The position numbers and the translations under genes were made by a program. A stretch of DNA of 20,067 nt from Candidatus Bathyarchaeia archaeon (GTDB lineage: Archaea > Thermoproteota > Bathyarchaeia > Bathyarchaeales > Bathycorpusculaceae): assembly GCA_038883715.1 (NCBI GenBank), contig JAVZLS010000017.1:1-20067 (forward strand), given 5' to 3'. Below, piece by piece: positions 9,432 to 17,465 of the stretch. How positions within the stretch are numbered: the first letter of the stretch is position 1; each line of letters begins with the position of its first letter. Below the pieces are notes generated by a model. The model was not told where the DNA came from and ran no database searches. It was given only the letters and a program-made list of their open reading frames with translations.

Positions 9432-9980
9432 ATGAAGATAGGAATTTTACGCATAGGGCAAGTCTACTCGAAAGTCCTAAACAGAATATGCGAAAACATA
9501 AACATGGCGTTCCCAAAAACACAGTGCCAAGTAATCCGTGAAACTTTGACTTTGCCGAAAGAAGCCTTCGACAAAGTAAGGAAGCAGTACCGCTCAGACG
9601 TGATCTTAGGCTTAGTGGCAAGCTATGCAGAAAAAGCCAGAAACCTAAACCGTGTTTTAGGCGTGGTCGACACCGACATTTATGTTCCAGGATTAAACTT
9701 TGTTTTTGGAGAGGCGGAATGCCCTGGAAAGGCTGCCATCATATCCCTTTGGAGGCTGAGACCAGAATTTTATGGCGCTCCATCGAACTTTGAACTTTTC
9801 ATCGAAAGGGGCACAAAGGAGGCTGTGCATGAACTTGGACACACCTTCGGCTTAACTCACTGCAAAAATCCATTTTGTGTTATGTACTTTTCCAACTCCA
9901 TCTTTGAAACAGACAGAAAGAAAGGCATATTTTGTAATACGTGTTATTCAAATATTGAAAAGCTTCTGCAAATTAAATAG
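9432..9980 (+). CDS. amzA: archaemetzincin (M54 Zn metalloprotease)
   Basis: LNFVFGEA, HELGHTFGLTH zinc motif followed by C-x4-CVM...FC-x2-C (Cys4 site and Met-turn). Confidence 0.93.
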   Translation: MKIGILRIGQVYSKVLNRICENINMAFPKTQCQVIRETLTLPKEAFDKVRKQYRSDVILGLVASYAEKARNLNRVLGVVDTDIYVPGLNFVFGEAECPGKAAIISLWRLRPEFYGAPSNFELFIERGTKEAVHELGHTFGLTHCKNPFCVMYFSNSIFETDRKKGIFCNTCYSNIEKLLQIK

Positions 9981-10004
9981 CCAAGCACCTCGGTCTTCTA
10001 AAGA

Positions 10005-10117
10005 TTGGGGATTTACCCAAGGGTTCGGTGAGTTTTAAGAGGGGAGAAAGGAGAGAAGGGAGCTCCAAAAATAGGAACCACCGAACCCTTTTTGGGCTCC
10101 CCTTCCTTTCTTTCAAT
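10005..10117 (-). ncRNA. candidate structured non-coding RNA (long stem plus pseudoknot); not a family I recognise
   Basis: Interleaved inverted repeats 10045-10071/10089-10111 (~23 bp with bulges) and 10019-10030/10079-10090 (12/12). A G.U pair forms only on the minus strand. Upstream BRE-TATA at 10141-10155. Ends are estimates. Confidence 0.5.
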
Positions 10118-10140
10118 GGAAAAAGGAAAGAGAAGCACTA

Positions 10141-10155
10141 ATATAAAAGCTTTTC
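10141..10155 (-). promoter_or_regulatory. BRE-TATA promoter (GAAAAGC-TTTTATAT) pointing into the intergenic structured element
   Basis: Near-consensus archaeal BRE + TATA on the minus strand with no annotated gene downstream; standard spacing puts +1 near 10114-10118. Confidence 0.6.
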
Positions 10156-10180
10156 TATCAAAAAAGCGTTTCATCAGCAG

Positions 10181-17371: not shown

Positions 17372-17465
17372 TGGCGGGCCCGCCGGGAATTGAACCCGGG
17401 ACCCCCGGGTTTCTCGGCTTTTGGCTTAAAAGCCCGGTGCTCTATCCTTACTGAGCTACGGGCCC
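17372..17465 (-). tRNA. tRNA-Lys(TTT) with a 16-nt canonical 37/38 intron (17411-17426), CCA encoded
   Basis: GGGCCCG/CGGGCCC acceptor, GCTC/GAGC D-stem, CCGGG-CT-TTT-A[AGCCAAAAGCCGAGAA]A-CCCGG, CCGGG-TTCAATT-CCCGG T-arm, GCCA end. Confidence 0.95.

Follow-up and report, generated by a model that had tools for sequence, protein, structure and literature searches.

A candidate non-coding RNA gene family of Bathyarchaeia with a predicted bulge-helix-bulge base and an invariant C/U-rich loop

In archaea, bulge-helix-bulge (BHB) motifs mark several precursor RNAs for cleavage. The motif, hBHBh′, is defined in a passage of PMC4090602 as an outer helix, a 4-bp helix, two 3-nt bulges and an inner helix. 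In the precursor of the Thermoproteus signal recognition particle (SRP) RNA, as one part of PMC4731332 describes it, a 23-nt leader and the trailer form a BHB, the endonuclease cuts it and the product is circular; BHB-dependent circular RNAs are presented as general in archaea in an excerpt of PMC12558985. The present analysis concerns a 200-bp gap between two convergent genes (positions 9981-10180) in a 20,067-nt stretch of Candidatus Bathyarchaeia archaeon DNA (contig JAVZLS010000017.1; the whole stretch is called the window below). For this gap an earlier note, made from the letters alone, had proposed a pseudoknotted non-coding RNA (ncRNA) with its own promoter on the minus strand. The overall best explanation, to which a probability of roughly 0.6 is assigned, is a minus-strand gene whose transcript folds into a rod with a BHB at its base and is excised as a probably circular RNA, with a C/U-rich loop as its working part.

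Other described RNAs are relevant to the loop rather than to the base. Qrr1-5 and GcvB R1 are sibling base-pairing small RNAs (sRNAs) with an identical unpaired seed, RsaE/RoxS and Methanosarcina sRNA41 carry a C-rich motif that masks Shine-Dalgarno sequences, and RNAs of the CsrB/RsmZ type sequester proteins through repeated short loop motifs.

Fold and promoter of the minus-strand RNA

The element is recovered by blastn in 11 of the 13 other genomes of the window's genus at 83-94% identity, within a context that is collinear over 3.2 kb and 82-93% identical overall; the two genomes lacking a strong match are 74% and 64% complete. The window's own genome holds the 200-nt gap sequence once (one full-length blastn match), and a blastn search of 27 genomes of other genera with the gap returns nothing above chance. 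Positions 10080-10031 reach 94.5% mean identity across 11 relatives, the top 50-nt bin in the 3.2 kb, and the mean falls to 57% in 10030-9981; coding bins lie at 70-92%. This conservation across relatives indicates that the element is more than a product of chance. The parts of the predicted rod are as follows:

10098..10102, minus strand: outer helix h, 5′ strand GGGGA, pairing with 10007-10011
10007..10011, minus strand: outer helix h, 3′ strand UCCCC, pairing with 10098-10102
10094..10097, minus strand: central 4-bp helix H, 5′ strand GCCC, pairing with 10015-10018
10015..10018, minus strand: central helix H, 3′ strand GGGU, pairing with GCCC at 10094-10097
10079..10090, minus strand: inner helix h′ (P2), 5′ strand, pairing with 10019-10030
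10019..10030, minus strand: inner helix h′ (P2), 3′ strand, pairing with 10079-10090
10062..10078, minus strand: apical hairpin P3, GGUUC (10078-10074) with GGAGC (10066-10062) and the U-rich loop UAUUUUU
10039..10062, minus strand: C/U-rich strand CUCCCUUCUCUCCUUUCUCCCCUC (24 nt), invariant or nearly so in the genus, presumed functional site

The rod is given by RNAalifold on the 12 genus copies and by 10 of the 12 single-sequence minimum free energy (MFE) folds. At its base GGGGAGCCC (10102-10094) pairs with GGGU...UCCCC (10018-10007), the 12-nt helix comes next, and the C/U-rich strand is left unpaired. On the genus alignment 93.3% of the cells pair, compared with at most 57% in slid-register controls, and the covariation amounts to 0.236 versus 0.186 in column shuffles, none of 500 being as high. 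Regarding the individual helices, three of the five outer pairs are changed on both sides within the genus, and the central helix is paired in 93.8% of the cells. P2 reaches 95.1%, with one column pair (34/105) being C-G in eight rows and A-U in four and several others alternating between U-A and U.G. P3 is paired in 95% of the cells, displays one-sided changes only and competes with a 3-bp extension of P2. The predicted transcript 10117-10000 adopts the rod fold at -41.6 kcal/mol (z -2.63).

The earlier note had drawn the same sequence differently, combining a ~23-bp hairpin and the 12-nt helix into an H-type pseudoknot or into mutually exclusive folds, which could act as a functional two-state switch. 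Its features all lie where it placed them, the arm order B-A-B′-A′ is present, and both helices can be drawn. The 12-nt complementarity (10019-10030 with 10079-10090) is 100% and covaries in relatives. The inverted repeat behind the longer stem also exists (10046-10071 and 10089-10114, 26-nt arms, 73% complementary), but it lacks covariation support: the hairpin is paired in 86.4% of the cells of the same alignment, with a covariation of 0.152 versus 0.149 in shuffles (187 of 500 as high), and even in slid registers it retains 62-70% pairing, as would be anticipated when a purine tract faces a pyrimidine tract. Covariation favors the long-range helix, whereas the hairpin does not go beyond composition. 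Furthermore, the hairpin 3′ arm is invariant, and the 5′ arm shares GGGGAGCCC with the rod base and hence overlaps the covarying outer and central helices, so that rod and hairpin are mutually exclusive. The small UUGGG/CCCAA hairpin of the note is likewise drawable, but its bases pair elsewhere in relatives.

Folding energies bear on the same choice. In the window's genome a fold constrained to the hairpin lies within 1 kcal/mol of the MFE, as a pseudoknot or switch would allow. This near-isoenergetic state is limited to that genome and is helped by a G at 10063 that is absent in 11 of the 12 sequences, the C-G pair at alignment columns 27/62 occurring in one of the 12. In seven relatives with a sound alignment the rod has the lower energy, by 2.1-22.2 kcal/mol; four further rows, in one of which the hairpin is better, were misaligned by MAFFT and are uninformative. 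The leaders of other genera in the window's stem type (type 1, see below) are purine-rich and could pair with the loop, but the leaders of type 3 are not purine-rich. Taking these data together, the pseudoknot or switch is improbable, and the rod is the preferred fold.

Regarding the ends of the transcript, four elements are assigned:

10141..10155, minus strand: archaeal B recognition element (BRE)/TATA-like promoter GAAAAGC TTTTATAT, near-invariant in 12/12 genus copies
10118..10140, minus strand: conserved C/U-rich spacer CUUCUCUUUCCUUUUUCC between the TATA box and the predicted start, more conserved than neutral flanks
10103..10117, minus strand: predicted start (~10117) and purine-rich 5′ leader AUUGAAAGAAAGGAA, the start being placed from the TATA position
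9999..10006, minus strand: 3′ tail with a short T-run (10002-10000), likely termination region, the 3′ end being predicted from the sequence

The proposal of an own promoter is borne out, since GAAAAGC-TTTTATAT is found at 10155-10141 with the near-invariance listed above and, over the taxonomic family, 65 of 78 members have a TATA-like box on the sense strand, 60-110 nt upstream of the loop motif, versus 5 of 78 in the mirrored antisense window. The conserved block has a sharp start at ATAGAAAAGCTTTTATAT, i.e., at the promoter. The assignment to the minus strand from G.U pairs also stands: read on the opposite strand, many of the U.G pairs would turn into A.C. Folding against shuffled controls gives -64.9 kcal/mol for the minus strand of the gap (z -3.30, 0 of 200 shuffles as good) and -61.7 for the plus strand (z -2.34, 3 of 200). 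A TTTT run follows the motif by 30-90 nt in 42 of the 78 members. Leader length is variable among relatives. For the spacing between TATA box and start, a passage of PMC4731332 gives 26 nt in the Thermoproteus SRP RNA. The window's spacer is similar to the loop motif and shows complementarity to the purine-rich leader. It could serve as a regulator site or indicate that transcription begins at another position.

Some side observations touch on this region. The predicted 5′ end (10110-10117, minus strand) reads AUUGAAAG, which we take to be identical to the 8-nt 5′ handle found in many archaeal CRISPR RNAs; because only 8 of the 12 genus copies have it and the other stem types lack it, the likeness is probably coincidental. 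In sequencing runs, the higher summed depth at 10002-10163 was rejected as a sign of expression, since it stems from contigs of several related strains, and two runs labelled 'metatranscriptomic WGS' (whole-genome shotgun) behave like DNA. The assembly contigs of runs X2 and X5 break at window positions 10041/10067, on either side of the invariant loop, which probably reflects strain mixing at a conserved segment.

The neighboring genes offer an alternative of their own, namely a cis element:

9432-9980, plus strand: archaemetzincin open reading frame (ORF; amzA), 182 aa
10181-11206, minus strand: methionine-synthase-like ORF, 341 aa

The gap between them is unusually long, as the earlier note had remarked, the remaining three convergent pairs in the window being separated by 11, -4 and 44 bp. 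The RNA could belong to the methionine synthase mRNA as its 3′ untranslated region or terminator, or it could regulate the archaemetzincin gene in antisense; its position between the two convergent genes fits such a role, and with a T-run as short as this one read-through antisense to the peptidase gene is possible. However, in 30 loci of other genera tblastn gives no match to the window's neighbor genes beside the members, and synteny with the methionine synthase gene ends at the genus boundary. Within the genus, the segment between the methionine synthase stop codon and the conserved block is indel-rich and not conserved, while the RNA has its own consensus promoter. In one relative (L014; G010:C6) an insertion of ~630 nt, absent in the other 11 genus copies, separates the stop codon from the promoter. 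Of the two options left by the earlier note, the independent ncRNA with its own promoter is thereby retained and the 3′ element is not; a cis element is very unlikely.

Equally remote is a group of readings that dispense with a structured RNA, i.e., a DNA-level element (H-DNA mirror repeat or protein-binding site), a small protein gene or a mobile element. The loop is indeed near mirror-symmetric, at 20 of 24 positions (p ~0.02 by a binomial estimate), but compensatory and G.U stem substitutions make sense only in a one-strand RNA. The 47-aa and 53-aa ORFs that overlap the region were rejected because of indels that are not multiples of 3 and start codons and frames that are not conserved. A miniature inverted-repeat transposable element, for which the earlier note would have expected many dispersed copies, was rejected as well: the motif occurs twice in the genome, as one full-length copy and one paralogue with a different stem, in stable synteny across the genus. 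Collectively, an independent minus-strand gene with the rod fold is regarded as highly probable.

The RNA family and its bulge-helix-bulge base

A covariance model (R1) built from the genus alignment, whose E-values are rough, matches 113 of 151 genomes of the taxonomic family, representing 60 of 70 genera; two or three matches in one genome are common. At the order level, with E <= 1e-4, the matches comprise 16 of the 35 genomes from the family and 4 of the 115 from other families, and the RNA family is seen in four sister families of the order. The aligned matches share TCCCTTCTCTCCTTTCTCCCCTC or a close variant, on three types of stem:

Type 1 (the window's type): GCCY-AAA-ACGGGUUYGG...
Type 2: UGAGGAGAAUGGURG...CYACCAUUCUCCUCA
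Type 3: GUUGG-GUGG-AAA-GGUUUGGAG...CUCCAAACC-CCAC-AAN-CCAAC, with the loop variant CUCUCC(U/C)UUCUCCCC

The loop motif is common to types 1 and 2, and the loop of type 3 is near-identical. In MFE folds the motif is enclosed by at least 10 bp in 74 of 79 unique members, and in types 1 and 2 an average of 85% of it is left unpaired; a U-run lies ahead of it in most members. In the consensus stem of type 2, seven of the 13 pairs are changed on both sides (e.g., A-U 36 / G-C 15). The second copy in the window's genome belongs to this type (G000:C12:13272-13365, i.e., L056:1001-1094, minus strand): it has its own TATA box, a different 14-bp stem (GGGGAGAAUGGUGG/CCACCAUUCUCCCC), the same loop and no BHB, and lies ~145 nt upstream of a 159-aa flavodoxin-like gene. 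Among the 14 genomes with two fetched matches, 12 combine type 1 or 3 with type 2, one combines a type 1-like copy with type 3, and one holds two type 2 copies. The joint occurrence of type 1-like and type 3 copies in genome G061 (L142, L032) means that these two types are not simple orthologous replacements of each other.

The exact 21-mer occurs in 66 stretches of species-representative genomes, 63 of them with a Bathyarchaeia or Bathyarchaeota label, two with the label 'uncultured archaeon' and one from a Thermoleophilia metagenome-assembled genome, where it sits in a long C/T-rich low-complexity tract. When at most one mismatch is allowed, 32 of the 401 genomes in the class contain a 19-mer (29 of the family's 103, two elsewhere and the window's own), with one match for the reversed 19-mer as a control; those genera that lack the strict motif have the type 3 variant. 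The exact 19-mer is also present in three viral-collection contigs of IMG/VR (L178-L180), with model scores of only 14.2 and 11 bits, the former from what looks like a weak type 2-like hairpin at L180:9105-9218, which may stem from Bathyarchaeia, either by misbinning or as a provirus.

The base of the rod has the geometry of a canonical BHB, with the 4-bp central helix, two AAA bulges on opposite strands, and the outer and inner helices. In types 1 and 3 the elements run h, H, bulge and h′ along the 5′ strand and h′, H, bulge and h along the 3′ strand. The feature list of the earlier note, accurate in its coordinates, had missed both this motif and the family-wide invariance of the loop. Three features follow from it:

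10091..10093, minus strand: 5′ bulge AAA, predicted endonuclease site; AAA in 19/19 parsed type 1 and 33/34 parsed type 3 copies
10012..10014, minus strand: 3′ bulge AAA, predicted endonuclease site; in the 19 parsed type 1 copies, AAA in 17, GAA in one and AAG in one
10013..10091, minus strand: predicted excised 79-nt RNA, possibly circular, from the BHB geometry and the cleavage rule given below

In the window's genome, constraining the fold to the canonical 3-4-3 geometry costs 0.7 kcal/mol relative to the MFE. When the 19 type 1 copies are parsed, H is fully paired in all, the 5′ bulge is AAA in all, and 14, the canonical ones, have an outer helix that is adjacent and 2 bp or longer. The 34 type 3 copies comprise 24 canonical ones, seven with an extra nucleotide opposite the 5′ bulge and three others; overall, the geometry is canonical in 38 of the 53 parsed BHB-class copies. 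The central helix occupies the same position in both types, as GCCY/RGGY in type 1 versus GUGG/CCAC in type 3, where it is 100% paired in the 34 copies. The outer helices vary widely in the family yet pair: in the type 3 alignment nine pairs are changed on both sides versus 3.0 +/- 1.1 in shuffles (0 of 500 as high), including all six outer-helix pairs. Among 390 mononucleotide shuffles, not one yielded a BHB fold. The BHB counts rest on this explicit parsing, on the constrained folds and on the type 3 covariation, a permissive detector having been discarded when 386 of 1800 shuffled flanks passed it.

The same genome encodes two endonuclease-family ORFs (PF01974; 194 and 192 aa; G000:C3:90065-90322 and C2:64656-64910), a pair that presumably forms the heteromeric, broad-specificity type of enzyme, and one RtcB (PF01139). 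The splicing endonuclease cleaves after the second bulge nucleotide, and this rule, applied to the BHB geometry, gives an excised piece of 79 nt, 10091-10013. The pairing of the first two anticodon bases with the intron, described in a passage of PMC4090602, fits the same rule. Taking the predicted folds and this gene set into account, processing of the RNA at the BHB by the tRNA-splicing endonuclease appears reasonably likely. As a separate observation within the window, a 91-94-nt tRNA gene at 17372-17465 (minus strand; Rfam 60 bits), which ARAGORN cannot type, probably holds an intron, which would fit an active splicing endonuclease.

The C/U-rich loop and the proposed mechanism

In the preferred explanation, transcription would proceed from the BRE/TATA element and start ~25 nt downstream, near 10117, yielding a precursor of ~115-120 nt. 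This precursor would fold into the rod, with leader and trailer paired, a 12-bp inner helix and the apical C/U strand (10062-10039) unpaired, folding features that are adopted because of the covariation. The tRNA-splicing endonuclease would then cut in both AAA bulges, and RtcB would join the ends into a stable, dumbbell-shaped circular RNA of 79 nt (10091-10013). The C/U-rich loop would be the working part, pairing with purine-rich RNA or otherwise holding a protein. Type 2 would represent a linear sibling that presents the same loop but has another stem and promoter, and the siblings may serve different inputs. Since type 2 lacks the BHB, processing is not required for display of the loop. 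A more far-reaching proposal, an 'intron without exons' in which an RNA excised by the tRNA-splicing endonuclease and circularized by RtcB is the sole product of its gene and, with a linear sibling beside redox genes in each genome, makes up a lineage-wide Bathyarchaeial riboregulator or sponge system, is speculative and rather unlikely in this full form.

The loop is the most constrained part of the RNA, and siblings share it on different scaffolds and promoters, which points to a trans-acting site. Among its possible roles, pairing with purine-rich RNA, e.g., Shine-Dalgarno-type leaders, is tentatively ranked first, protein binding second, and other roles after these. The ribosome-binding sites of the organism are of the GGAGG/GGTGA type, and its 16S rRNA ends in GGAUCACCUCCU; the loop is complementary to GGAG, GGGGA and GAAAGG runs and lacks CCUCC, the anti-Shine-Dalgarno core. 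Pairing with the loop is 2-4 times more frequent in translation-start regions than in ORF interiors, yet does not exceed that of shuffled C/U strings. With RNAduplex, 16,163 candidate starts pair with the loop no better than with its reversed form, a poor control given the near mirror symmetry of the loop. A by-eye look at rRNA pairing gives only an 8-nt match, in the 16S trailing spacer. Separately, three genes for secreted/dockerin-like proteins (G000:C2:110762 and C2:112757, minus strand; C15:17538) have unusually long purine-rich leaders, such as GAAAGAAAGGAGAAGGGGAAAGAGGGAA before the AUG, which are similar to the 5′ leader of the RNA itself and show complementarity to the loop.

The second role, in which the same gene and fold present the loop as a protein-binding site (a sponge or ribonucleoprotein scaffold, for example for a KH-, cold-shock-domain (CSD)- or Sm-type protein), is somewhat less probable and remains doubtful. 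It would account for the invariance of all 24 loop positions, including U/C sites where wobble pairing would tolerate change, for the repeated UCC/CUCC-like units and the U-run ahead of the motif, and for the lack of target enrichment for the loop. However, the search for a partner gene linked to any of the three types yields no candidate, and a long identical unpaired stretch in siblings is also typical of base-pairing regulators such as Qrr and GcvB R1.

The genomic setting of type 2 adds a weak hint. In 38 of the 52 unique copies tested, a flavodoxin-like/FMN-reductase gene on the same strand follows it at a distance of ~130-190 nt, and the conserved gene order at type 2 loci (L061-L126) places isochorismatase and M24 peptidase genes upstream and flavodoxin-like, thioredoxin/glutaredoxin-like and OGG (8-oxoguanine glycosylase) genes downstream. 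This neighborhood hints weakly at redox stress. The sequence GGAGAAAGG, downstream of the type 2 copy and near the promoter of the flavodoxin-like gene, was rejected as a candidate element, being not conserved (5 of 49 loci versus 6 of 49 in a control window).

Several results pull against the rod, its processing and the pairing role of the loop. In the window's genome the hairpin-constrained fold reaches -40.8 kcal/mol versus an MFE of -41.8 kcal/mol. Given the conserved spacer at 10118-10140, transcription may start elsewhere, and the sole true RNA run covers 9711-9856 only, inside the peptidase gene. As to the BHB, 15 of the 53 parsed copies are not strictly canonical, seven having an extra nucleotide opposite the 5′ bulge and eight an outer helix that is non-adjacent or at most 1 bp long; a strict detector applied to MFE folds found the motif in 2 of 26 BHB-class copies, a low count that is ascribed to register ambiguities. 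In type 2, none of 60 copies forms a BHB within 1 kcal/mol of the MFE, the median penalty being 19 kcal/mol. In the ungapped comparison of translation starts with the loop, 32 regions score at least 24 versus 25.5 +/- 6.9, with 13 of 60 composition-matched shuffles as good, and the genome holds no long antisense partner with at most 6 mismatches of 26.

The ncRNA family appears to be undescribed. The earlier note had seen no C/D box, ACA, tRNA, SRP or RNase P features, and the scan of the gap with the Rfam 15 covariance models agrees with this: none reaches its gathering score, those for tRNA, C/D box, H/ACA, SRP, RNase P, sscA and RsaE included, the best sub-threshold matches being generic microRNA hairpin models (at most 29 bits, with thresholds of at least 45). 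A scan of nine loci with paralogues and orthologues returns nearby tRNAs only. Among the papers listed by a full-text search of articles on Bathyarchaeial names and ncRNA terms, none dealt with Bathyarchaeial ncRNAs. BHB processing as such is established; no description was found of a small-RNA gene family dedicated to it that combines an invariant C/U loop with a linear sibling. Bathyarchaeia are abundant, uncultivated archaea, and an RNA that is widespread within one of their families and has a sharply defined site offers metatranscriptomic and biochemical work a convenient point of entry. If the predicted processing takes place, a dedicated small-RNA gene would join the short list of archaeal splicing substrates other than tRNA and rRNA, and the family would supply a natural case of circular and linear siblings with the same active loop.

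Comparison with known RNAs

With H-type pseudoknot RNAs the window shares the arm order B-A-B′-A′. Unlike in these RNAs, covariation is confined to one of the two helices, and the second is in competition with a helix that does covary.

The likeness to the base-pairing regulators (Qrr1-5, GcvB, RsaE/RoxS, sRNA41) lies in the loop: an identical single-stranded stretch recurs in paralogues of the same genome that differ in scaffold and promoter, and this stretch is pyrimidine-rich and complementary to purine runs of the GGAG/GAAAGG type. In contrast to them, the window RNA is archaeal and bears no sequence or Rfam relation to the group. It also differs in that its invariant stretch is 24 nt long and without an exact CCUCC, and its predicted targets are as frequent for shuffled loops. 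With CsrB/RsmZ it has in common the sibling genes and the short repeated motifs in an unpaired region; unlike these, it displays one loop per RNA, with a motif that is C/U-rich rather than GGA, and no partner protein is known.

The BHB precursors, i.e., the permuted SRP RNA of Thermoproteus, pre-16S/23S rRNA and tRNA introns, are the nearest systems for the base of the rod. The window RNA differs from them in that its excised part has no similarity to SRP RNA, rRNA, tRNA or C/D box RNA, its flanks form no 'exon' of known function, and its cleavage and circularity are predictions from sequence. It resembles them in having its own TATA promoter, in a genome with two endonuclease-family genes and RtcB, and in the pairing of leader and trailer into an hBHBh′ motif, which is predicted here and described for the precursors in passages of PMC4731332, PMC4090602 and PMC12558985.

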